This document shows positions 3,418 through 32,078 of a stretch of 64,000 nt of DNA, in pieces (position 1 is the first letter of the stretch; each line of letters starts with the position of its first letter). Position numbers and translations under genes: made by a program. The stretch is from assembly GCA_041659845.1 (NCBI GenBank), contig JBAZXM010000002.1:4-64003 (forward strand), in the 5' to 3' direction. The stretch is from Minisyncoccota bacterium. GTDB lineage: Bacteria > Patescibacteriota > Minisyncoccia > Phycocordibacterales > UBA9973. The notes beneath the pieces are model-generated. The model made no database searches. It had not been told where the DNA came from and saw only the letters and a program-made list of their open reading frames with translations.

Positions 3418-3981
3418 ATGGCAGACATTAAAAAACAAAAACTCGCATTCTTAGATACGGAAACTACCGGATTAAATCCAGACAAACATGAGCTGATTGA
3501 AATCGGTTGCGTGATTGTCGAACAAGACTGGACTGGAGACGATAAGAAGCCCACATTTGAAATAGTTGAAGAAATAGAAATTAAGATAAAGCCAGAACAT
3601 ATTGAAGATGCCGATCCTGTGGCACTGCGGGTCAACCACTATGATCCTGTTGATTGGGTATTTGCATACACTCTGCCAGAGGCTATGAAAATTCTTTCGG
3701 AAAAAACCAAAGGAGCTATTATGGTAGGACACAATATATGTTTTGATAATGGGTTTATAGAGCATGCTTTTAGAATATCCGGAGTAGATAATACAATGCA
3801 CTACCACAAGTTAGATACTATTTCCATAGCGTTCGCAAAACTTCATAATCACGAAGATATCGATAAGTTTTCTCTTCACGCACTCGGAGAATACTTCAAT
3901 ATTGAGAATAAGCACGCCCACTCGGCACTTTCCGACGCTCGGGCGACTTTTGAGCTTTATGAAAAGCTTATGAGAATTTAG
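3418..3981 (+). CDS. 3'-5' exonuclease, DnaQ/DEDDh family
   Basis: Exo I FLDTETTG, Exo II MVGHNICFDNGF and Exo III HSALSDARAT motifs. Confidence 0.7.
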   Translation: MADIKKQKLAFLDTETTGLNPDKHELIEIGCVIVEQDWTGDDKKPTFEIVEEIEIKIKPEHIEDADPVALRVNHYDPVDWVFAYTLPEAMKILSEKTKGAIMVGHNICFDNGFIEHAFRISGVDNTMHYHKLDTISIAFAKLHNHEDIDKFSLHALGEYFNIENKHAHSALSDARATFELYEKLMRI

Positions 3982-4053
3982 CTATTGCTTATTTTTGAAT
4001 ATGTGATATAGTTTCAAGTAGATATTTTAACATTTAAAAATAGGAGGTTATTC

Positions 4054-4710
4054 ATGATCTACATTTCAAATGGCGGTCAGGATAATCTTGACCAATTTTT
4101 ACTCGCTAAAGAGCGCCTTATCAATATTTTAGAAGAATTCAAATCTGTCGGTATAATTATTTCTTTCAGCGAATGTCCGATAAAGGGCCTTGAAGGAAAG
4201 ACTTTTATGAAAGTTTTCCATCTGGAAAATCTTTATATTAAAATTTTCCTGGGAATGGATAAGTTGGATGTTACTGAAAAATATATAAATTCAGGATCGG
4301 ATTTTATAAATCTAGACGCGGAAGATGATGTCATTCGCGCGCTCATTATGAAGCATATAGAGCACGGGCGTTATGGATATGCGATTGAAAAGCGCGTACA
4401 GAAAGTATTAGAAAATCTAAACAATTACCAGAAAGGTTTCTCGTGCTCAATTCTCCCACAATCGGTGGTTGATGACAGCAAGGGGAGGGATTTTGTAATC
4501 GAACTTGATTACTTGGCTTTGGGATATCGCATATGGGGGCGAATACCTTTGCAAATCAAATCGAATGAATATCATCAGAAAAAGCACATTGAGAAGTATC
4601 CTAGTGTTCCGTCTGTTGTGATAGACATTAATGATTCTGATGAGATAATTTTGAAAAAAATAATTCAAGTCGTAGAAGGGTATTTTGAAGGAAAAATCCT
4701 TCATATCTGA
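4054..4710 (+). CDS. hypothetical protein (possible PD-(D/E)xK-like core DFVIELDY..IPLQIKS)
   Basis: 218-aa ORF with an AGGAGG RBS at 4040-4046. The nuclease-fold suggestion is speculative. Confidence 0.4.
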   Translation: MIYISNGGQDNLDQFLLAKERLINILEEFKSVGIIISFSECPIKGLEGKTFMKVFHLENLYIKIFLGMDKLDVTEKYINSGSDFINLDAEDDVIRALIMKHIEHGRYGYAIEKRVQKVLENLNNYQKGFSCSILPQSVVDDSKGRDFVIELDYLALGYRIWGRIPLQIKSNEYHQKKHIEKYPSVPSVVIDINDSDEIILKKIIQVVEGYFEGKILHI

Positions 4711-21017: not shown

Positions 21018-24000
21018 ATGCATCATGTATATATTTTTAGCCATCGATTAAAAAAATATTTCTCCACTAAATTGCCAGCGTTTTTGCTGGCCTTTTTATT
21101 TATTTTTTCACCGGTAGCTCAAATTTTTGCAGAAGAAGTATCACAATCTTCAACTGCAGAAAATATTGAAACACAAGCACCAGAAATTAATCAAACTGAA
21201 ACAACACCAACACCTGAACCCGAACCTCAAAGCCAAGAATCTAACTCAAGCCAATCTTTATCTCAAGCACCAATCTCAAGTTCAACTGCAAATACAAATC
21301 TACCGCCATCAAGTATTAAAGTATTGCTTCCGGAGGCAGACCAAACGACAGGTGCTCTTGTATACAGTTATCCAATAGCTATTCCGTCAGGACGAAATGG
21401 TTTACAACCAGATTTAGGACTTACATATAATAGCCAAAACATGCAGGAGGGTAGTATTTTTGGATCAGGATGGTCGGTAAATATTCCGCAAATTGAACGG
21501 ATTAATCGAAAAGGTTCTGAAAAGCTATATACAGAAAATTATTTCTCCTCCTCACTTGATAGTGAGCTGGTGGAAGTATTCTCAAATGTTTATGCTCCAA
21601 AGGTTGAGAATGGTAGTTTTAATAAATATGAATTTTCTAACAATATTTGGACAGTAACGGATAAAAAAGGAACTGTATATAAATTCGGTCAGACTGCAGT
21701 TTCCCGACAAGATGATCCAAACGATAGTACTAAAGTCTACACATGGACGCTTGAAGAGATAAGAGACACAAACGATAATTATATAAAATATGAATACTAT
21801 AAAGATGATGGACAGATTTATCCTTCTCGCATAATTTACACTGGGAATGGAATAACTGATGGCATTTTTGAAATCAATTTCCTTCGCCAATCGCGAACAG
21901 ATATTGCTCCGATAAACAAGACAGGCTTCAGTGTAAGTACTAATTATCGTGTTTACGAAGTTGATATAAAGACAAGCGGAATATTAACTCATAAATATGA
22001 AATTAGTTACACAACAGGAGATAACGGTGTCCGCTCGCTAGTAAATAGTATTACTGAATCAGGTATCAACCAGGCGACAGGTATAATAACTACACTTCCT
22101 CCGACATCTTTTTCTTATCAAACTAGTACTGCCGGATGGACGCAAGATACTTCCTTAACCGTTCCTGTGACATTTGTTTGGCCGTCTGGTCAAGATGCTG
22201 CAGTCCGTATTCTTGATGTAAATTCTGACGGCTTGCAAGATCTTGTCGTTTCGAGTGGATCATCAGGTGTGAAATCTGTGTATTTAAATAATGGCGGTGG
22301 CTGGGTAGAAGATACTTCTTGGGTAATACCGGAATATATTGTTGATGCCGGGAATAGTGATACAGGTTTTCGATTTTTGGATATAAACGGAGATAATTTG
22401 CCAGATATTATTTTATCAAGATTATGGGATTATAACGGCGATAATACCAAGCATGTGTATATCAATAATGGCAGTGGTTGGGTAGAAGATTTCACTTGGA
22501 CAATACCGGTATATTTTTCAATCCCAGGAGGCGTTGATCCAGGTTCTCGAATTGCCGATATAAATGGTGATGGTCTTCCTGATTTATTAGTTTCAGAAAG
22601 GATGAGTGATACTCAAAAAGTCTATATCAATAATGGTACTAATTGGGTATATGATCAAGCGTGGGTTATTCCGATGTATTTTACTAATATATTTTCGCGT
22701 GACGAAGGTACTATCCTTACTGATATTAACGGCGATGGGCAAGCAGATATTCTTTGGTCGAATAATGCCTTGTCGATGAAGTCTGTTTACATTAATACCG
22801 GCACAGGGTGGACTGAAGATACTACATGGGGGACTATTCCGGAATATTTTCTTGACGGGTCTCGTAAAGACAGAGGGGTACGATTCGCAGATATAAATAG
22901 TGATGGACTGATGGATATTTTGATTTCATATCTCGTGCAAGATAATCAATATGGTCGTACAGAAGAAAAGCATGTTTACATAAATACTGGCAAGGGCTGG
23001 ACGGAAAATACTTCAATCACCATCCCAGTTTTCTTTGTTGATCCTGGCAATGGCGACACTGGCGCTCGTATCAGCGATAATAAGGGTTCAAATTTGTCAG
23101 GTATTATTTTATCAAAACACTTACAGCCTAATTTAGACCAAAAGGAAGCATACAATAAAAATGGTAAAAGGTCAGATCTTCTTTCGCGTATTACATATTC
23201 TACAGGAGGAACAACTGACATCACATATAAATCATCAACACAATATAAAGATGGAAGTACAATATCAAACCCTAATCTTCCATTCGCATTTGATACGGTG
23301 CATCAATTATCTACAAATGATAATAATGGAAATATTTCAACCACTACATACGATTACGAAAATGGTAAGTATTATTTCAATACGCCTTTTGATAGAAAGT
23401 TCGCAGGGTTCGGCGCAATTACAAAAATAGATTCTGTAGGAAATACTGTAAAAACATATTTTCACCAAGGGGATGCCACCAATTCTTCACAAGGAGAATA
23501 CGATGATCATTCTTCAAAAATTGGCAAACCATATCTTATCGAATTCGCTGATGCATCGGGGAATATTTATTCTCGCACTATTAATAAATGGGAAAAGACT
23601 AGCTTAGGAACTGGTCGTGATTTTATTTACCAAAGTCAAAAGATTGATATGGTTTATGACGGCAATGCAACACACAAAGATATTGCCACGGAGTATACCT
23701 ACGATACAGTAAATGGTAACCTTCTCACCCAAGTAAATAGAGGGGAAGTAAATGCTTTACTGAACGGTACATTTACAGATACTGGTAGTGATATGAGCAC
23801 TGCAACTTATACATATAACCAAAATACATCAACAAATGTTTATGCTCCTCAAAATATTATTGTAACGGACGGTCTTTCAAATAAAATTCAAGAATCAAAA
23901 TATTATTATGATGCTTTGGCATATGGGTCAATTAGTAAAGGTAATCCCACAAAAGTAGAGAATTGGAAATCCGGCACATCATATATCTCAACAGAAAAGA

Positions 24001-27000
24001 CATACAATAATTATGGTCTCGTGACTTCTGATAAAGATGCTCGCGGCAAGATTACTTCATATACTTATGATTCGAATAATCTTTACCCGATAACAATTAC
24101 TAACCCACTCAACCACACTATTCAATACACACATGATTCTAGTACGGGCAAAGTCCTTACTACGACAGACCAAAACGGTGTCGTATATATAAATACTTAT
24201 GACGGTTTAGGGAGAATCAAGGAAGAAAAAATTCCGGGCACTATCGCTCCGTATTCTCCGGTTCTAAAAACAGACTATGTTTATACAGACACCTCCGGAG
24301 CAGTCGCAATTCAAAAAACCGAGTATCTCGATGCCTCAAATACCGTTGATACTTATCAGTATTTTGATGGATTGAATCGTCTTACACAAGAAAGGACGGA
24401 AGCGGAAATGGCGGGCGATTTTAATGTTCGTGATATTATTTACAACAATCTCGGCCTTCTTGAAAAAGAATCGTTAAAATATCAAAGTACTGGAAGTGTA
24501 AAGACCACACCGACAACTATACAAGCTCTTTATACCTCGAATACCTACGATCTGTTACAGCGCGTTTTGACTGCAACTAATGCATCCGGTACGACAAGCA
24601 ATATATATGACGGTTGGAAGGTATCTATTACTGATGCAAAAGGTAATGTAAAAAATTTCTACAAAGATGCTTACGGCAATCTCATAAAAGTCGAAGAAAA
24701 AAACGGAACAAGTACATATACGACACTCTATGAATGGAATCTCAACCAGAAACTTACAAAGATTACTGATGCTTTGGGGAATATTCGTAATTTCACCTAC
24801 GATGCTCTGGGTCAGCGTTTAACTGCGGAAGATCTTCACACTCCTACGGATACTACATTCGGCACGTGGACATATACATATGATGACGCTGGTAATATCA
24901 CTCAGACAACGAATCCAAGAGGCCAGATCATTACTTCTACTTATGATGACCTCAATCGAATTCTTACTGAAAGTGTCACTGGCGCACCTCTCGTGGGCGC
25001 TATATATGTGTACGATGTTTGTCTAAATGGTATAGGGAAACTGTGCAATGCTCTGGTGAAAGAAGGATCGACAAACACAGCGTATGCCTATGATTCTCGA
25101 GGGGGAGTCGCACTTGAAACGAAAACAATCAGTGCAATTGCATATCCTACTTCATATACTTACAATCACCAAAATAATATTCTCTCAATCACAACTCCCG
25201 ATTTGGCGGTCACGCAGTACACCTACAATCAAGGCGGGCTATTGGAAAAAATTGAAGTCAAAGAAGCCGGCGGCGCATTTGCAAATATCATTTCAAATTT
25301 TGATTATAATCCGATGGGTCAGATTACTACGCAGAATTTTGCAAACGGTGTTATTACGACCAATACTTATGATTCAGCAAATTTGTACCGCCTAACTCGT
25401 CGTCTAACTCAGAATTCCGCTCTGGAGAAATTACAAGATCTCAATTATACATATGACAATGTCGGAAATATTACCCAGATTATAGATTCATCCAATACCA
25501 ACGGAGCCAAGACTTCAGTATTTGCATATGATGATTTGTATCGTCTTATTTCTACTACAGTTACAAATTCAGCAAACGCTCAAAATTACGCGCAGGCCTA
25601 CACATACGATGCTCTAGGGAATATTCTCACTGGGCCGGCGGGGGCGTATCTTTATCAAGGTAGTACTGGAACAAGTAAAGCTAATTCGCATGCTGTGACT
25701 TCTATAAACGGCGCTGTAATTACTTATGACAATGATGGTAATGTATTAACGAGTGGTGCGCTTACTAACACATGGAATTATCGTGATCAATTAAGTCAGA
25801 CGATAAAACAAACGCCAAGCGTGGTCATAAGTGTTCCAGAAGTGCTAGTATCAGGAATGTCTTTGAGTGCTGTGCCTGTAAAAAACAGTCTTTTAAATAC
25901 TAGAACGTTTGAATCTGCTTCAACTGCCAAAATAATCCAGCCAATTAATGTTTCTGTTCCAATCACAATGAATTATTACTATGACCACACAGGTAGCCGA
26001 GTCTGGTATAAGGTGGATGCAGTAAGTACATATTATCCAAACAAGTTTTATAATACGAGTGGTACGAAAAAAACTAAGAAAATTTTTGCCGGCAATACTC
26101 TCGTCGCGAGCATTGAAACTGTAATCTCAGGGATGACGCCCGTATTAGAAATCAAAACACTGAGTTCTTTGACCAGTTTGGGCGGTTCTTCTGTCGGTGG
26201 TGTTACTACTCCAACAAAGACTATTACCCTGTATTATGTCCACACAGATCATGTTTTGGGTTCAAGCGTCATATCCAATCAATCAGGTACAAAAGTAGAA
26301 CTTCTAGACTACTATCCTTTCGGTCAAATCCGCCTTGATGAGAAAACTGGGAGTTTCAGCGAGCAAAGGAAATTCGGGGGACATATCTACGACCAAGAAA
26401 CAGATTTGAACTATTTGGGCGCAAGGTATTATAATGGAACATGGGGGAGATTTGCATCACAGGATTCCATGTTTTGGAGTCTACCAGATAGTTACCTGCT
26501 TGATCCTCAACAGCAAAATAGCTATAGTTATGCGAGAAATAATCCTGTGGTTTATGTTGATCCAGATGGGAATAGTGCACAATTACCTGCGGGACTCATA
26601 AGTGTCTATCAGTCAATTAAGCAAATATTTACCAATGCTTTTGGTGGACAAAAAAATAATAGTACTCCAGCCCAAGTTACAACTCCAACCCCTAAAGCTC
26701 AACAGGCACAAACTTCAAAAGTAGGACCAGGAGATTATCCGGGTGATGGACATATAAAAAGTGATTATATCAAAATAACTTTTGATCCTGGAGCAGATAA
26801 TTCCCTAAACCAAAAGGCTGTAAATGGTTATGAACAAATATTCGAACAAGCAAGTCAAAGAGGTATAACTTCTGTTAATTTTTCTTCTACGGCTAGATTA
26901 GATAAAGAAAAATTTTCTTGGCATAATTATGGTCTTGCTGGAGATATAAATATTGTTAATGGAATTCATGTTTCAAAAGATAATTCTTATGCAAAAACAT

Positions 27001-27149
27001 TACAGAATGTAATAGATAAAACTCCTGGAGTAAGGGAAAATTTTGGCCCCTTCATAATTAATCATAGTAGTAAAGTGTACTCAATGGAGCAATATGATAC
27101 TTTAAGCAAGGGACATCAAGATCATGTTCATACTTCGTTTAATAAGTAG
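21018..27149 (+). CDS. giant secreted polymorphic toxin combining TcB-like and TcC/RHS-like parts with a C-terminal LAS/M15-type zinc-peptidase toxin domain
   Basis: In order along the protein: a signal peptide; a T/P/S/Q-rich linker; an SpvB-like domain (GALVYSYPIAIPSGRNGLQPDLGLTYNSQN..GSGWSVNIPQIERINRKG); at least five DxNxDGxxD FG-GAP/VCBS loops (LDVNSDGLQDLV, DINGDNLPDII, ADINGDGLPDLL, TDINGDGQADIL, ADINSDGLMDIL); many YD repeats (YTYDALGN, YDGLGR, YDDLNR..); and the RHS core (LYYVHTDHVLGSS..YYPFGQIR..RKFGGHIYDQETDLNYLGARYYNGTWGRFASQDS..YVDPDGN). The tip carries SWHNYGLAGD ... DHVH. Confidence 0.85.
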   Translation: MHHVYIFSHRLKKYFSTKLPAFLLAFLFIFSPVAQIFAEEVSQSSTAENIETQAPEINQTETTPTPEPEPQSQESNSSQSLSQAPISSSTANTNLPPSSIKVLLPEADQTTGALVYSYPIAIPSGRNGLQPDLGLTYNSQNMQEGSIFGSGWSVNIPQIERINRKGSEKLYTENYFSSSLDSELVEVFSNVYAPKVENGSFNKYEFSNNIWTVTDKKGTVYKFGQTAVSRQDDPNDSTKVYTWTLEEIRDTNDNYIKYEYYKDDGQIYPSRIIYTGNGITDGIFEINFLRQSRTDIAPINKTGFSVSTNYRVYEVDIKTSGILTHKYEISYTTGDNGVRSLVNSITESGINQATGIITTLPPTSFSYQTSTAGWTQDTSLTVPVTFVWPSGQDAAVRILDVNSDGLQDLVVSSGSSGVKSVYLNNGGGWVEDTSWVIPEYIVDAGNSDTGFRFLDINGDNLPDIILSRLWDYNGDNTKHVYINNGSGWVEDFTWTIPVYFSIPGGVDPGSRIADINGDGLPDLLVSERMSDTQKVYINNGTNWVYDQAWVIPMYFTNIFSRDEGTILTDINGDGQADILWSNNALSMKSVYINTGTGWTEDTTWGTIPEYFLDGSRKDRGVRFADINSDGLMDILISYLVQDNQYGRTEEKHVYINTGKGWTENTSITIPVFFVDPGNGDTGARISDNKGSNLSGIILSKHLQPNLDQKEAYNKNGKRSDLLSRITYSTGGTTDITYKSSTQYKDGSTISNPNLPFAFDTVHQLSTNDNNGNISTTTYDYENGKYYFNTPFDRKFAGFGAITKIDSVGNTVKTYFHQGDATNSSQGEYDDHSSKIGKPYLIEFADASGNIYSRTINKWEKTSLGTGRDFIYQSQKIDMVYDGNATHKDIATEYTYDTVNGNLLTQVNRGEVNALLNGTFTDTGSDMSTATYTYNQNTSTNVYAPQNIIVTDGLSNKIQESKYYYDALAYGSISKGNPTKVENWKSGTSYISTEKTYNNYGLVTSDKDARGKITSYTYDSNNLYPITITNPLNHTIQYTHDSSTGKVLTTTDQNGVVYINTYDGLGRIKEEKIPGTIAPYSPVLKTDYVYTDTSGAVAIQKTEYLDASNTVDTYQYFDGLNRLTQERTEAEMAGDFNVRDIIYNNLGLLEKESLKYQSTGSVKTTPTTIQALYTSNTYDLLQRVLTATNASGTTSNIYDGWKVSITDAKGNVKNFYKDAYGNLIKVEEKNGTSTYTTLYEWNLNQKLTKITDALGNIRNFTYDALGQRLTAEDLHTPTDTTFGTWTYTYDDAGNITQTTNPRGQIITSTYDDLNRILTESVTGAPLVGAIYVYDVCLNGIGKLCNALVKEGSTNTAYAYDSRGGVALETKTISAIAYPTSYTYNHQNNILSITTPDLAVTQYTYNQGGLLEKIEVKEAGGAFANIISNFDYNPMGQITTQNFANGVITTNTYDSANLYRLTRRLTQNSALEKLQDLNYTYDNVGNITQIIDSSNTNGAKTSVFAYDDLYRLISTTVTNSANAQNYAQAYTYDALGNILTGPAGAYLYQGSTGTSKANSHAVTSINGAVITYDNDGNVLTSGALTNTWNYRDQLSQTIKQTPSVVISVPEVLVSGMSLSAVPVKNSLLNTRTFESASTAKIIQPINVSVPITMNYYYDHTGSRVWYKVDAVSTYYPNKFYNTSGTKKTKKIFAGNTLVASIETVISGMTPVLEIKTLSSLTSLGGSSVGGVTTPTKTITLYYVHTDHVLGSSVISNQSGTKVELLDYYPFGQIRLDEKTGSFSEQRKFGGHIYDQETDLNYLGARYYNGTWGRFASQDSMFWSLPDSYLLDPQQQNSYSYARNNPVVYVDPDGNSAQLPAGLISVYQSIKQIFTNAFGGQKNNSTPAQVTTPTPKAQQAQTSKVGPGDYPGDGHIKSDYIKITFDPGADNSLNQKAVNGYEQIFEQASQRGITSVNFSSTARLDKEKFSWHNYGLAGDINIVNGIHVSKDNSYAKTLQNVIDKTPGVRENFGPFIINHSSKVYSMEQYDTLSKGHQDHVHTSFNK
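26574..27149 (+). other. C-terminal toxin domain of the RHS protein, predicted LAS-family (M15/VanY/L-Ala-D-Glu peptidase-like) zinc peptidase
   Basis: It starts right after the DPDGN autoproteolysis motif. An SxHxxGxAxD motif (KFSWHNYGLAGD) and a C-terminal DxxH plus H (HQDHVH) match the His-Asp-His zinc ligands of LAS enzymes. Confidence 0.6.
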
Positions 27150-27158
27150 ATAAAAAAT

Positions 27159-27593
27159 ATGAAAAATATATTAAAAATTTTGTTTCTTATATTAATAATA
27201 CTGGGAATATATATCATTACTAAACCAAAGCTATCATTTGGTACTTTTACAAATATCCCGGAAAATTTAAAAGATTCTGGCTGTACTTTTTATTGGACAG
27301 AACAAGATGTAAGCAATAAAAATTATGCACTAGTCTCTACTTTTGGAAATACAGAAAATTTAGAACCCAATGCTATTATTTTTATAAATAATAAATTAGA
27401 AGAATTAAATACAAAAGACAGTGATTATCTTTATAAATATAAATATGAAAATAGTAAATATGCTATCAATATAAAAGTTATTAGAAGTACTCTTAACGGG
27501 AATGAAAGTTATTATGAAGAGGGCATTTTAACAGCCAAAGACAATAAGGGAAACAGCATATTACGTAATATTATAGGATATTGCGGAGTTTAA
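27159..27593 (+). CDS. candidate immunity protein for the peptidase toxin (small exported/membrane-anchored protein)
   Basis: 144 aa with a signal anchor (MKNILKILFLILIILGIYIITKP). It starts 10 nt after the toxin stop and is very AT-rich. Confidence 0.45.
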   Translation: MKNILKILFLILIILGIYIITKPKLSFGTFTNIPENLKDSGCTFYWTEQDVSNKNYALVSTFGNTENLEPNAIIFINNKLEELNTKDSDYLYKYKYENSKYAINIKVIRSTLNGNESYYEEGILTAKDNKGNSILRNIIGYCGV

Positions 27594-27638
27594 ATATTAA
27601 TTTAACCGAGTATAAATTGAGCCAGTTGTTTCTAGATT

Positions 27639-28256
27639 ATGTATAAAATAGGAAAGAAAATAGGAATAAATGATAAAAATATATACAGCACAGTTTTTAT
27701 TGTAATTGTTTTTATTACTCTATCAACGTTTTTCTTAAAAAGTTCTTCTAAAAATAATCAACCTATAGAAATTATTAATAACAATCAATTTAAAGAATGG
27801 AATAATTTTTTTGTTAAAAATACAGAAATTTTTACAACCAGTGATTGGTTTACATATGAAGGTAAAAATATAGGCGAATTTTCAATCGCCCTTCCAAATG
27901 ATTGGAAATTAGAAGGAAGTGTTTTTACAAATAACAATGATCAAAAAGTTGCAGAATTTTCTCCAGGTCTGGTTCAATTAAAAAATAATCAGAGTTGTTT
28001 TGATGTTGAATGGAGTAATGAAGATGGAGAGAGTGAAATGATCTCCCTAAATGATATTGAGATAGGGTCATTAAAAGGCAAACTACTTGTTGAAAAAGCG
28101 CCCGCATGGGAGGAAAGTGCTAATAAATATTTATATCCATATTTTTATTGTTTATCAAATGGACATAACGCTTTTGTAATGACTTTTTATGAATGGAATT
28201 TGGAATTAACTGATACAGAGTTACATAATAAAATTCTTAGTACATTGAGGTTCTAA
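27639..28256 (+). CDS. hypothetical membrane-anchored protein (possible orphan immunity gene)
   Basis: 205 aa with an N-terminal TM (IYSTVFIVIVFITLSTFFL). AT-rich. Confidence 0.4.
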   Translation: MYKIGKKIGINDKNIYSTVFIVIVFITLSTFFLKSSSKNNQPIEIINNNQFKEWNNFFVKNTEIFTTSDWFTYEGKNIGEFSIALPNDWKLEGSVFTNNNDQKVAEFSPGLVQLKNNQSCFDVEWSNEDGESEMISLNDIEIGSLKGKLLVEKAPAWEESANKYLYPYFYCLSNGHNAFVMTFYEWNLELTDTELHNKILSTLRF

Positions 28257-28289
28257 AATAGATCGCTGCCGTTAAACAATTTTTCTTAT

Positions 28290-29252
28290 ATGATCGCGAA
28301 TATTAAAATGAAAAAGTCAAAAATTATTAAATCAGCAATTATAGTCGTATTAATAGTTTTAGTTCTTGCTAGTTATTATTTACATCAAATAAACATTATC
28401 AATAATATTGATCAAAAAGTTCATTCTATGAATGGTGGAACTTTTAGGTATGGCATAGAAAATCTAAATAACGAAGAATTTTTGGAGAATATGACGGATG
28501 GTGGTGGGGGGCTTGTTGGATATTTTAGAGGTAGTGAGTTGATAAAAATGGTCGAACGGGTTGGTCTTTCCTATGGCACCCAAAATTTTCAGTTTTATTA
28601 TGAAAATGAAAAATTAATCTTTGCCTACCATGAACATAGATTTTTTAATCATAATGAAGATGGCTCAAAAGATTATGACCACCCGGGATTTCTTTTGGCC
28701 ACCAAATATTATTTCAAGGATGGAAAGTTATTTAAAAAAGAATTTCACAGAGAAAAGAATTTCCCAACAGGTTATGACATTACTATAGAATTTTTATTAG
28801 CACAATCAGAAAGAAATTCTAAAATTATTTCAGAATTCAAAAACAAGGAGTATTACGGAGAATGGATGGTATACAAATCTATGTCTCCTCAAAATATGGT
28901 GACTTTCGAAGAAGAGCCCTTAACTAAAGAACAAATTAATGAATTTTCAAATTCTAAAATTATTTTAGAGAAAGAAAAAGCGATTTTATCAGGAAATATT
29001 TGCAATAATCCAGAATATGTTAAGGTTGAAGAAACTCCTTTTGATTATTTTCTAAATAATTATAAAGTTGTTATTAATGAAGAAACTGGAAGTACAACCG
29101 CTTTAGATAAAAAATCTTTAGGCATAAACTCGGAATTTTCTGATATTGTAGAAATAAAATGTAATAACGATTACTATACTCTCTTAATCACTAACTCAAA
29201 AGAATCATTGCTTGAGTATAAAAATACTTTTTTCTTTTTAACAAAAAACTGA
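28290..29252 (+). CDS. hypothetical membrane-anchored protein (possible orphan immunity gene)
   Basis: 320 aa with an N-terminal TM (IIKSAIIVVLIVLVLASYYL). AT-rich. Confidence 0.4.
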   Translation: MIANIKMKKSKIIKSAIIVVLIVLVLASYYLHQINIINNIDQKVHSMNGGTFRYGIENLNNEEFLENMTDGGGGLVGYFRGSELIKMVERVGLSYGTQNFQFYYENEKLIFAYHEHRFFNHNEDGSKDYDHPGFLLATKYYFKDGKLFKKEFHREKNFPTGYDITIEFLLAQSERNSKIISEFKNKEYYGEWMVYKSMSPQNMVTFEEEPLTKEQINEFSNSKIILEKEKAILSGNICNNPEYVKVEETPFDYFLNNYKVVINEETGSTTALDKKSLGINSEFSDIVEIKCNNDYYTLLITNSKESLLEYKNTFFFLTKN

Positions 29253-29336
29253 CTATGGGTTAAGTTAAGTAATGAATTTTTCAAAACTAACTAAGCTTTT
29301 ATAGTAAGGTTAATTTTTAAATGGTAAAATATAGTA

Positions 29337-30638
29337 ATGAATAAAAACACAATCGCTATTATCAGTGCTCTTGGAATAATTATTCTCACTGGAGTAGTTG
29401 GATATTTTCTTCTTACTTCAAAAACACAGCCACAGCCCATTAAGGTTATAAGTTCTTTTGAGGAATGCGCACAAGCCGGCTATCCGATTTTAGAGAGCTA
29501 TCCCGAACAATGCCAAACTCCCGACGGGCAATCGTTTACAAAAGGACTCACTCCTCAAGAAGCAGTTTTGGGAAATCAGGTCACACTTCGCGTAAATGAG
29601 CAGGTAAAATTTGATGACGGCTTAGTAATAACGCTCACGGAAATCAATGACTCGCGCTGCAAACAAGGCGTGCAGTGCATATGGCAGGGTGAGCTTTCAT
29701 CTACATTCATTATTCTTGGTGGAAATGTTTCTGAGTTTAAAGAAATACAATTAGGAACAGTAACCGCTAAAAGCGCAACACAAAACGGGTACACGTTTAC
29801 ATTAAAAGAGGCGACTGAAATCAATGCGACGATCACGGTAACTAAGAAGGCGACTATTTCTCCGCCCACTCCAACACCAACCCCAATTCCACCAGTTGCG
29901 TGCACCGCTGATGCAAAACAATGTTCTGATGGATCGTATGTGGGAAGAACAGGACCAAAATGCGAATTCACAGCATGTCCGGGGGAAAACTCCGCTCAAG
30001 TATCTTTACGAGAGGGGCAACGTGAGGGACCATTGCTCGTTCAAAAAATTTATCCTACATATATCACCGGGCAAGTCTATAGAGAATATCCGGTAGCAAC
30101 CGATCAGGGCTCGCCGATAACAATGTACATCGGAGATAGTGCTTCAAATGGATGTACGGTAACACTGACGCTTATCAGAATCCAAAATGGAATAGCCGTG
30201 TTCACGAAAACAACAGATTATAATCGTCCGTGTCCGATATGTCTTGCTGAAAATACTTTTATCGATACGCCCGCAGGGGAGATAGCAGTCCAGAATCTTA
30301 CGGCAGGAATGGAAGTTTGGACAGTAAATAATTCTGGGATAAAAGTTTCAGCAAAGATTCTTAAAACCGGAAGAACATTGGTGCCAGAAACTCATCGCGT
30401 AATGCATTTTGTTTTGAGTGATAACCGCGAGCTTTTTGTCTCACCCGGGCATCCGACAAGTGATGGCCGACTCGCCGGCACTGTTTTGGCTGGAGACACG
30501 CTCGATGGTGCAAAAGTACTCAGCGCTATACTCGTCCCTTATGAAGACGAATATACCTACGATATACTTCCAGCTGGAGAAACTGGACAGTACTGGTCTA
30601 ACGGAATTCTCATGAGTAGTACGTTAATAACTAGCTAG
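29337..30638 (+). CDS. secreted Cys-rich protein with a C-terminal Hint (hedgehog/intein-like, BIL-type) autoprocessing domain
   Basis: A signal anchor, Cys-containing modules and a PPTPTPTPIPP linker. The protein then runs CLAENTFIDTPAGEIAVQNL..GMEVWT..TGRTLVPETHRVMHF..SPGHPTSDGRLAGTVLAGDTL (Hint block A Cys, block B TxxH) and ends at the Hint domain. Confidence 0.6.
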   Translation: MNKNTIAIISALGIIILTGVVGYFLLTSKTQPQPIKVISSFEECAQAGYPILESYPEQCQTPDGQSFTKGLTPQEAVLGNQVTLRVNEQVKFDDGLVITLTEINDSRCKQGVQCIWQGELSSTFIILGGNVSEFKEIQLGTVTAKSATQNGYTFTLKEATEINATITVTKKATISPPTPTPTPIPPVACTADAKQCSDGSYVGRTGPKCEFTACPGENSAQVSLREGQREGPLLVQKIYPTYITGQVYREYPVATDQGSPITMYIGDSASNGCTVTLTLIRIQNGIAVFTKTTDYNRPCPICLAENTFIDTPAGEIAVQNLTAGMEVWTVNNSGIKVSAKILKTGRTLVPETHRVMHFVLSDNRELFVSPGHPTSDGRLAGTVLAGDTLDGAKVLSAILVPYEDEYTYDILPAGETGQYWSNGILMSSTLITS

Positions 30639-30809: not shown

Positions 30810-32078
30810 ATGCTAAAAGTAAAAGATCGCTTGGTCTTTGAGACCACTAAACTCAGCAACGGCATCACAGTCCATACAAAGAAAACTGATGACCCTTTTG
30901 TAATGATTCGTATTATGATTCCTGTGGGCAGTGCCCATAATACAGGAGGCATTTTGCCGGGATCATTTCATTTTCTCGAACATCTTGTCTGCTGCCGTTC
31001 TGAAATGCATCCTCAATACAAAGCATTTCAAAAAGAATTAGCACTTCATGGTGGTGGATTTAATGCGCAAACATGGATGTTGAATACGACATACATAGTT
31101 GATATACCATCCTCATTTTTTCATGAGGCACTTACAGGATTAATATCCATGGTATTTAATCCGCGTTTTAATGAGGATGATGTAGCACGTGAGCGCACCG
31201 TTATCATTAACGAGCGGAAAATGAGAGAGCCATATTTTCCAGGCGAAAATGAGCTTGAAGAGTATAAAGGAAATAAGTGGATGCGGAAACATAGCTTGGA
31301 CCTGCAGACAATTTTTGGTTCTGATCAGGACTTAGAATCTATGACACTCTCAATGATGGATTATCTGCATATGAACAACTACCGTGATAGTGGAATTAAT
31401 GTAATTATCGCCGGTGGAATCAAGGAAGAGGATATAGCAAAAATACTTCCTCAATTTGAATTGATTACTACTTATGTAAGAAATAATCTTGTTCATTACA
31501 ACCCATCACAATGGGTACATCAGGATTACCATGAGAAAATCTCAAAAGATACTAATCGTTTTCAATATTGCTTAGGGCTCGTATTGCCTAGATTAAGTAT
31601 TGAGGAATTTTGCATGTTGGCGTTTATGGGTAAGTTTTTGACGAATCATGTCCAAGGCCCGCTCTACAAATGGCTGCGAGAGGAAAATGGATGGGTGTAT
31701 GGTTTGCCCACAGATATGAAACGAAGTATGTGGGACACCAATTTTGAATTAAGAATTCCTTTGAGCAAGCGTGAACATGTTGATACCGTCCGCTCTGAAC
31801 TTTCTGAGCGTGTAGTTAATGCATTTCGCGACCAAGATCTGATTCAAAGGGAATTTTCCAGACAAGTAGCAAATTCTGTATTTGATTTTCAGACGCTCCA
31901 ATCTGTTGTTAGTATGGCTCACAGCCACCTTATGCATGTTGGTAGGGTAATTACTGAGAGTTCTATAGATGAATCAATGAAACAAGTCTGCGAAACCGGC
32001 TACCTATCAAGTCTTTTTGAGAAATATGTAACTCCTGAGACTTTAGGAACAATACTCGTTGTGCCTGAGCATGAATAA
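30810..32078 (+). CDS. peptidase M16 (insulinase/pitrilysin-like) family protein
   Basis: Inverted zinc motif HFLEHL (HxxEH). Confidence 0.6.
   Translation: MLKVKDRLVFETTKLSNGITVHTKKTDDPFVMIRIMIPVGSAHNTGGILPGSFHFLEHLVCCRSEMHPQYKAFQKELALHGGGFNAQTWMLNTTYIVDIPSSFFHEALTGLISMVFNPRFNEDDVARERTVIINERKMREPYFPGENELEEYKGNKWMRKHSLDLQTIFGSDQDLESMTLSMMDYLHMNNYRDSGINVIIAGGIKEEDIAKILPQFELITTYVRNNLVHYNPSQWVHQDYHEKISKDTNRFQYCLGLVLPRLSIEEFCMLAFMGKFLTNHVQGPLYKWLREENGWVYGLPTDMKRSMWDTNFELRIPLSKREHVDTVRSELSERVVNAFRDQDLIQREFSRQVANSVFDFQTLQSVVSMAHSHLMHVGRVITESSIDESMKQVCETGYLSSLFEKYVTPETLGTILVVPEHE

Follow-up and report, generated by a model that had tools for sequence, protein, structure and literature searches.

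The open reading frame (ORF) at positions 29337..30638 of the forward strand of the stretch analysed here, a 64,000-nucleotide segment of a Minisyncoccota contig referred to as the window, is a real ORF of 433 amino acids (aa), as seen from its translation. Its product is identical to the hypothetical protein WC795_00540 of a metagenome-assembled genome (MAG) of Candidatus Paceibacterota, a member of the candidate phyla radiation (CPR). The last ~132 residues of this protein are, by sequence and by structural model, a genuine Hint domain, an assignment that stands well beyond chance. The protein belongs to a family that is large, highly conserved and uncharacterised, is found across uncultivated bacteria and archaea, and is not a broken toxin.

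Structurally, the protein is built of modules placed one behind the other, all features below lying on the forward strand. The N-terminus is a hydrophobic helix of 25 residues (aa 3-27, 29343..29417), helical at residues 3-27 in the AlphaFold2 model, and it could serve as a membrane anchor or an uncleaved signal. As no signal-peptidase site is obvious, the helix is better taken for a membrane anchor than for a signal that is cut off, with the remainder of the protein placed extracellularly. It is followed by a small two-Cys module (aa 40-70, C44 and C59, 29454..29546), a generic part of CPR surface stalks that also occurs in CPR proteins devoid of Hint. A beta-sandwich stalk domain comes next (aa 74-170, C108 and C114, 29556..29846), with strands predicted at a local confidence (predicted local distance difference test, pLDDT) of ~90; it is also found without Hint and gives sub-threshold matches only against Pfam. 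A flexible linker rich in Pro and Thr (aa 171-187, 29847..29897; pLDDT <50 at residues 178-182) leads to a four-Cys knot (aa 188-215, C189, C196, C209 and C214, 29898..29981) that is widespread in CPR proteins, and the family alignment has C189 and T190, the first two positions of the knot, in its consensus. The cargo, or pre-Hint, beta-domain (aa 217-298, 29985..30230) has seven strands, the invariant C273 and a pLDDT of 86.5. The Hint domain itself spans aa 302-430 (30240..30626), as placed by Pfam, intein alignments and the model searched with Foldseek. The product contains 11 cysteines, at positions 44, 59, 108, 114, 189, 196, 209, 214, 273, 299 and 302. A preliminary description, made from the letters of the DNA, had listed Cys-rich N-terminal modules, and all of them were found, including CAQAGYP..C (44-59), the Pro/Thr linker (175-186) and CTADAKQCSDGSY..C..C (189-214).

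The same description had proposed that the ORF ends in a Hint domain, and profile, pairwise and structural comparisons bear this out. The Pfam family Hint_2 (PF13403), which we take to be equivalent to the B-type bacterial intein-like (BIL) domains, matches residues 301-345 of the query with E=4.5e-6 and 27.5 bits, and is matched by 71 of 73 relatives at E <=1e-3; scores of relatives reach 29-41.5 bits. A phmmer comparison pairs the query with the engineered consensus intein CatC (6dsl) at 3.7e-6, a match that rises to E=1.3e-7 in an hmmsearch with the family profile. The AlphaFold2 model of the full protein, with a mean pLDDT of 86.9, has the horseshoe-shaped all-beta Hint fold. Foldseek matches it to the mini-inteins gp41-1, MchDnaB and Ssp DnaB with a probability of 1.00 and target template-modelling (TM) scores of 0.65-0.78, and in the same range to the Clostridium BIL 2lwy, to Tetrahymena BIL2 and to the Hedgehog C-terminal domain (HhC) 1at0; 6tyy was also matched. 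By sequence and by fold, Hedgehog Hog domains are more distant from the domain than mini-inteins and BIL domains are. The two families that had been suggested for a profile check were not the ones that responded. PF01079 (Hedgehog Hint) gave no match to the query at E up to 1 and is absent from the 7 families that the 73 relatives hit, and PF07591 (PT-HINT) did not match the query and found 2 of the 73 relatives only, weakly (E ~2e-4). NCBIfam likewise gave no family match for the query.

The alignment to gp41-1 and CatC sets the catalytic motifs in register. In block A, CLAENTFIDTPAG pairs with CLDLKTQVQTPQG, which makes C302 the Cys1 nucleophile and puts the predicted scissile bond between Ile301 and Cys302, within the junction C299-P300-I301/C302 (30231..30242). 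The Cys of CLAENTF had been named as the first residue of the domain, and it is this Cys302 that aligns to Cys1 of gp41-1; the length of 125 aa given at that time was short of the ~132 aa found. Block B is S369-P-G-H372 (30441..30452), a T/SxxH motif in which VSPGH pairs with CSEEH of gp41-1 and CSDNH of CatC. It had been sought in the string PETHRVMHF, which contains no TxxH and holds instead H353 (30393..30395), a near-invariant, family-specific residue in a hairpin loop that precedes block B, is missing from the gp41-1 intein and lies in the region where HhC has D46. H353 could act as a general base. The block-F Asp, aligned to the YDL/IDI motifs of inteins through YTYDIL, is D409 (30561..30563). 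At the C-terminal end, ANGILxxS pairs with ANDILTHN of gp41-1, so that S428 takes the position of the terminal Asn, and S428-T429-L430 (30618..30626) stand in place of the block-G Asn and the +1 nucleophile. The penultimate His of block G is missing, its position being occupied by G, D, A or K in the family, and the His-Asn pair of canonical inteins is not present in the query. Five residues follow S428 (TLITS) and three follow STL, namely ITS, before the stop codon. The preliminary description was thus right that no HN/extein junction exists and that nothing follows the domain. Because Ser428 replaces the terminal Asn, the penultimate His is missing and nothing lies downstream, the retained chemistry is, as read from these motifs, the N-terminal acyl shift alone, with splicing and C-terminal cleavage predicted to be impossible.

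The residues of this chemistry are conserved to a high degree, as counted over 331 distinct Hint sequences, or, for C302, over 118 sequences that were not selected on that residue. C302 is invariant (118/118), as are H372, D409 and Y419 (331/331 each), and S369 is kept in 330 of the 331. The junction is nearly as constant (C299 319/331, P300 328/331, I301 305/331), and the same is true of H353 (315/331) and of the replaced C-terminal end (S428 324/331, T429 323/331). A non-catalytic Hint, no longer cleaving and kept on the end of the stalk for structure or for binding, would fit the fact that the whole domain is conserved above catalytic need, as well as the fact that cleavage of the family members is something we infer. 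It is nevertheless improbable, since the residues of the N-S acyl shift (Cys1, Ser and His of block B, Asp of block F) are the most conserved ones, and since one unpaired Cys is retained in an otherwise disulfide-bonded exported protein, which would be costly unless the thiol were used.

The conserved unit of the family covers residues ~217-430, comprising the 82-residue cargo beta-domain and the Hint domain, with ~60% identity across relatives, and it ends 1-3 residues short of the C-terminus of the relatives. At E <=1e-3, an exhaustive search returned 1,442 cluster representatives (clusters at 50% identity), and 341 of them fall at <=1e-30. A scan of species-representative genomes with the consensus Hint sequence as the query gave a Hint match in at least 138 genomes, every one of them a MAG. 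The bacterial hosts are Chloroflexota, which form the majority, many CPR lineages, and also Actinobacteria, Dormiibacterota, Eisenbacteria, Verrucomicrobia, Bacteroidota, Gammaproteobacteria and Acetothermia. The archaeal hosts are Methanoperedens, Methanosarcinales, Micrarchaeota, Woesearchaeota, Bathyarchaeia and Thaumarchaeota, and identity to the Hint consensus across bacteria and archaea amounts to 55-73%. The source databases name the members 'hypothetical protein' or 'Hint domain-containing protein' only, and the family is not described in the literature searched, which included searches for Hint together with Patescibacteria or CPR.

Throughout the family the Hint domain is terminal. 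Among 259 diverse relatives, 242 stop within 5 residues past Hint and the other 17 carry tails of 6-71 residues only, which are of low complexity as judged by eye and were not run against domain libraries; in genomic context the domain is terminal in 80 of 80 loci. The C-P-[IV]-C-L junction is present in ~91% of the 259 members. The domains directly before Hint fall into at least three unrelated classes (n=324). The largest is the type of the query, an EGQREG...SNGC beta-domain (191/324), followed by a KLxVYREHKKLNAI domain typical of Chloroflexota lipoproteins (83/324) and by Cys-rich knots (40/324). Since the same Hint cassette stands behind at least three unrelated cargo classes, it is a cargo-agnostic module. 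The cargo domain of the query has no Pfam match, and Foldseek found nothing meaningful for it in the PDB (TM <=0.3, root-mean-square deviation ~13 Å).

N-terminal hydrophobic segments are present in 113 of 120 relatives, and many Chloroflexota members bear lipoboxes, so the proteins of the family are, on these sequence features, extracytoplasmic. The query had been called secreted; its export agrees with this picture, with an anchor read at its N-terminus. The number of cysteines is odd in the mature part of 275 of 286 exported members (binomial p ~4e-67), and from this odd count it follows that the family keeps exactly one unpaired Cys. The pairing can be approached through the second cargo class, where a single cargo Cys ([FY]-C-DPD-YYP) and the Cys at position -3 are both kept in 51 members and both lost in 2, and a single loss never occurs (Fisher p=7e-4). 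One of the co-loss cases (P0245) is otherwise intact. The other, at 3422-4405 of locus L085 in a Dehalococcoidales MAG, has lost the cargo Cys, Cys(-3), H353 (replaced by Phe) and the block-B Ser (replaced by Ala) and still has Cys1, H372 and D409. This copy may be inactivated, decaying or functionally shifted. Because of the odd-Cys parity and of this co-loss, the sequences favour a cargo Cys bonded to Cys(-3), which in the query would be C273-C299, with the catalytic C302 left free.

The junction also allows the two cysteines to be paired in another way. A redox-gated trap, in which a CPxC disulfide between Cys299(-3) and Cys302(+1) would block the acyl shift outside the cell until it is reduced, was considered first and was downgraded after the analysis of co-loss and parity; we now regard it as unlikely. 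The C-P-[IV]-C junction of most members invites such a trap, parity alone would also fit it if the cargo Cys were the free one, and control of N-cleavage by a Cys(-3)-Cys1 disulfide is documented for inteins, namely the engineered trap of the Ssp DnaE intein and the natural Pyrococcus abyssi MoaA intein (PMC3922620). The joint loss of the cargo Cys and Cys(-3), however, marks these two as partners. The variants P0189 and P0226 point in the same direction, as their junction is C(-5)-P-x-C(-2)-V-C1 and P0189 has no other cysteines, and the C(-5)/C(-2) cysteines are taken to bond locally with each other, independently of Cys1, which would stay free.

The reading that we consider probable is that of a type-II-anchored surface protein composed of a membrane helix, a Cys-stabilised CPR stalk, the cargo beta-domain of 82 residues and, at the end, a Hint domain for autoprocessing. 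After export, the N-terminal helix would keep the protein in the membrane, and all cysteines but one would form disulfides, including a staple between C273 in the cargo and C299 at junction position -3. The lone free thiol of Cys302 would attack the carbonyl of Ile301 in an N-to-S acyl shift, assisted by S369 and H372 of block B and D409 of block F. An external nucleophile would resolve the thioester and detach the Hint domain of ~14 kDa, and the stalk would retain the cargo domain at its tip, with Ile301 as the new C-terminus. The fold, the register of the motifs, the terminal placement, the conservation over the family and the Cys parity are observed here. N-cleavage by Hint domains is established knowledge (PMC4031507, PMC7765530), and its occurrence in the present protein, the disulfide map and the resolving nucleophile are proposed here by extension. 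Water, acting in plain maturation, and a non-water acceptor fit the data equally and cannot be told apart. Neither a sterol-recognition-region (SRR)-like extension nor a partner gene was found, which speaks for hydrolysis, and the exceptional conservation of Hint, together with the near-invariant H353, speaks for a more specific event.

Some observations weigh against this surface-protein reading and have to be set beside it. The Hint_2 score of the query lies 0.9 bits below the Pfam gathering cutoff of 28.4 bits. The disulfide assignment is drawn from parity and two co-loss events only, one of them in the possibly decaying copy of L085. Additionally, a whole-Hint identity of 55-73% between bacteria and archaea is above what would be expected for a single-turnover domain that is thrown away, and this excess of conservation hints at an additional function.

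A sub-variant of the same reading would be a transfer of the type known from Hedgehog and from the Tetrahymena BUBL proteins, in which a specific hydroxyl or amine receives the Ile301 thioester. The acceptor might be a lipid head group, a component of the cell wall or S-layer, or a surface molecule of a partner or host cell, and the cargo would then be tethered covalently at its distal end. Precedents with exactly such chemistry exist, as the Hint domain of Hedgehog passes its thioester to cholesterol (PMC7765530) and Tetrahymena BIL2, which is among the top fold matches, conjugates an upstream ubiquitin-like domain to lysines (PMC8616854). The unusual conservation of Hint and the presence of H353 in a family-specific loop would suit the recognition or activation of an acceptor, and surface stalks and lipoproteins carry the cassette at their far end. 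The family, however, shows no sterol-recognition-like extension or other extra domain past Hint and no conserved partner gene in the 80 loci, and its hosts range from CPR to Thaumarchaeota, with envelopes so different that a shared acceptor is not obvious; the measurements made here do not separate transfer from hydrolysis. We hold this transfer to be possible, at a lower probability than the surface-protein reading as a whole. A stronger proposal, offered tentatively and with less confidence still, is that the cassette would be the prokaryotic equivalent of autoprocessing in Hedgehog, a self-contained, single-use ligase in which the staple-held Ile301 thioester would be handed to a specific nucleophile of the envelope, a lipid or a partner cell.

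Four types of Hint are recognised, namely inteins, Hog-Hint, BIL-A and BIL-B (PMC7765530), and a comparison with each of them defines the position of the family. The preliminary description had spoken of a hedgehog-like architecture, which stands as an analogy of exported cargo followed by a terminal Hint. The likeness lies in a Hint limited to the N-terminal acyl shift, with a Cys nucleophile, a block-B T/SxxH and no Asn, in the structural matches to 1at0 and 6tyy, and in the combination of one Hint with varied, unrelated cargo, as in the Hog proteins of nematodes and protists (PMC2362128). In Hog domains an Asp or His general base activates the incoming nucleophile (PMC7765530). The differences are that the present family has no SRR or adduct-recognition-region (ARR) extension past Hint and does not match PF01079, that its junction is C-P-I/C-L as opposed to G/C-F in Hog, and that it has the putative disulfide staple to position -3.

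B-type BIL domains retain the N-terminal splicing motifs and not the C-terminal motif, and A-type BIL domains have a conserved C-terminal His-Asn (PMC7765530), which the present family does not have. Like the B-type, the family has kept the N-terminal motifs and lost the C-terminal ones, has Hint_2 (PF13403) as its best Pfam match, and shares with it an occurrence in non-conserved, exported bacterial proteins. It differs in that the domain is strictly terminal, so that no C-end cleavage can occur, in its high conservation, with 55-73% identity over bacteria and archaea, as against the hypervariable regions in which BILs are said to sit, and in its own signature of a CPIC junction, H353 and a terminal STL. 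The mini-inteins (gp41-1, DnaB and the consensus Cat intein) provide the best matches of sequence and structure, with blocks A, B and F in register, but the query Hint is not inserted in a host protein, has neither a C-extein nor His-Asn, and cannot splice. Canonical inteins have a terminal Asn (or Gln/Asp) after the penultimate His of block G and a C-extein that begins with Cys, Ser or Thr. Tetrahymena BUBL BIL2 (6y75, 6tmm) resembles it in that Hint directly follows a small domain, which the thioester conjugates to an acceptor amine (PMC8616854). BIL2, in contrast, has a C-terminal Asn (N143A in the crystal construct) and a downstream ubiquitin-like domain, is cytosolic and eukaryotic, and shares 9-10% sequence identity only. 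By description the family fits a BIL-B/Hint_2-like domain with a signature of its own, and falls outside the inteins, BIL-A and Hog.

A group of bacterial proteins with a C-terminal Hint-like domain was noted by Dassa and Pietrokovski (2005) and by Buerglin (2008), with MXAN_6253, plu1731 and STIAU_1829 as uncharacterised examples (PMC2362128). It is alike in architecture only, with a C-terminal Hint-like domain, conserved upstream cysteines and signal peptides in some members. Its junctions, as compared by published alignment fragments, are YG/C and NS/C with a C-terminal FAGGxLVGD..., unlike the CPI/CL and ANGILxxSTL of the present family, and its hosts are cultivated Proteobacteria and Myxococcota.

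The stalk of the query is not peculiar to this family. Its modules (window 29424-29981, aa 30-215), which are the two-Cys module, the beta-sandwich with C..GVQC and the four-Cys knot C.xD.K.C.DGS.V.R.GP.CEF..CP, are also built into at least 200 other CPR proteins without Hint. There they are combined with PF27854, CarboxypepD_reg, Gmad2 and PF27023 domains, as a modular toolkit of CPR surface proteins. In four proteins (P0060, P0304, P0305 and P0308), the N-terminal part is a TspO/MBR membrane protein of five helices, and these Cys-knot stalk modules are joined to it. P0060 (423 aa) goes further, as its TspO/MBR part is joined to a complete cargo and Hint cassette, an unusual arrangement that puts the cassette on a tryptophan-rich sensory membrane protein.

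Upstream of the Hint gene, the window carries on the forward strand a gene for a 2043-aa SpvB/FG-GAP/RHS-repeat polymorphic toxin (21018-27149). The C-terminal ~200 aa of this Rhs toxin form a tip with the pattern SxHxxGxAxD ... HxDHxH and a weak, sub-threshold match to Peptidase_M15_4 (E=0.0047), which suggests a peptidoglycan-hydrolase toxin of the LAS type. Three consecutive small ORFs of 144, 205 and 320 aa follow on the same strand (27159-29252), each with an N-terminal hydrophobic segment and none assigned to a Pfam family; it is plausible that they supply the immunity functions or orphan modules of the Rhs cassette. A sigma-70-like promoter match (TTTTCA-16-TATAGT, 29278..29305 (+), 9/12 matches) lies 32 bp upstream of the ATG of the Hint gene, which is weak evidence, as the count of promoter-like sites in the region is not above shuffled expectation. 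Directly downstream, 30810-32078 (+) encodes an M16 (insulinase-type) peptidase with an HxxEH motif (FHFLEH). A functional tie between this peptidase and the Hint protein is unlikely, because the neighbourhood is not kept in relatives. Within the window, tblastn found no paralogues of the Hint ORF, and no tRNAs are present.

In the relatives, neither six genomic contexts nor a clustering of the neighbour genes of 80 further loci revealed a family-wide conserved neighbour or partner gene. The commonest neighbour, in 15 of the 80 loci, from one Chloroflexota clade (mostly Chloroflexota/Limnocylindria MAGs), encodes a protein of ~611 aa that by eye reads as resembling an S9 peptidase with a beta-propeller; it directly follows the Hint gene and runs on the other strand (loci L037, L042, L051, L052, L055, L057, L064, L068, L070, L071, L074, L076, L077, L078 and L082). 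This is probably lineage synteny and not a functional partnership.

The Hint gene lies 2.2 kb downstream of the SpvB/FG-GAP/RHS toxin gene. The preliminary description had placed it next to the toxin locus and considered that it may be a remnant whose toxin tip was lost after a pre-toxin Hint, a view to which the weak PT-HINT matches of 2 of 73 relatives might add. In PT-HINT (PF07591) systems, as opposed to the present family, a toxin domain lies directly downstream. The proposal was to look for such a domain in the relatives, and none could be recognised past Hint in the 259 relatives, whose 17 short tails were judged by eye, and the 80 loci. A toxin neighbour is missing from all other contexts inspected, the six of relatives and the 80 further loci. 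The family is strongly conserved over at least 1,442 cluster representatives, and the guanine-plus-cytosine (GC) content sets the Hint gene (0.44, with dnaK/dnaJ at 0.44-0.445) apart from the low-GC toxin and putative immunity ORFs (0.25-0.28 in the three small ORFs). The remnant reading is therefore rejected as highly improbable, and the place of the Hint gene beside the toxin locus is taken to be a coincidence. For the window, a false link to the neighbouring Rhs locus is removed, and the surface-protein reading with a terminal autoprocessing Hint is the one that we retain.

Terminal Hint processing of exported proteins is well understood in animal Hedgehog alone, and prokaryotic examples of a terminal Hint have been mentioned in passing since 2005-2008 and never characterised. 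The restriction of the present family to uncultivated lineages probably explains why it has been overlooked. It follows a sequence logic in which the junction is CPI/CL, a single Cys is free, Asn is replaced by Ser and the cargo can be exchanged. If self-cleavage is all that takes place, the family would represent a new maturation step for the surface proteins of CPR, DPANN and Chloroflexota. Transfer of the thioester, rather than hydrolysis, would raise the importance of the family, as it would be a new covalent-anchoring chemistry and a possible tool, in the form of a compact module of 130 residues capable of N-cleavage only. Should the ligase proposal be true, surface proteins of CPR, DPANN, Chloroflexota and Thaumarchaeota would be tethered covalently in a sortase-independent manner, and the cassette would be a prokaryotic candidate for the ancestry of the 'exported cargo plus terminal Hint' arrangement, for whose rise in eukaryotes no source is known (PMC2362128). 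In episymbionts, such a tether could reach the host cell.

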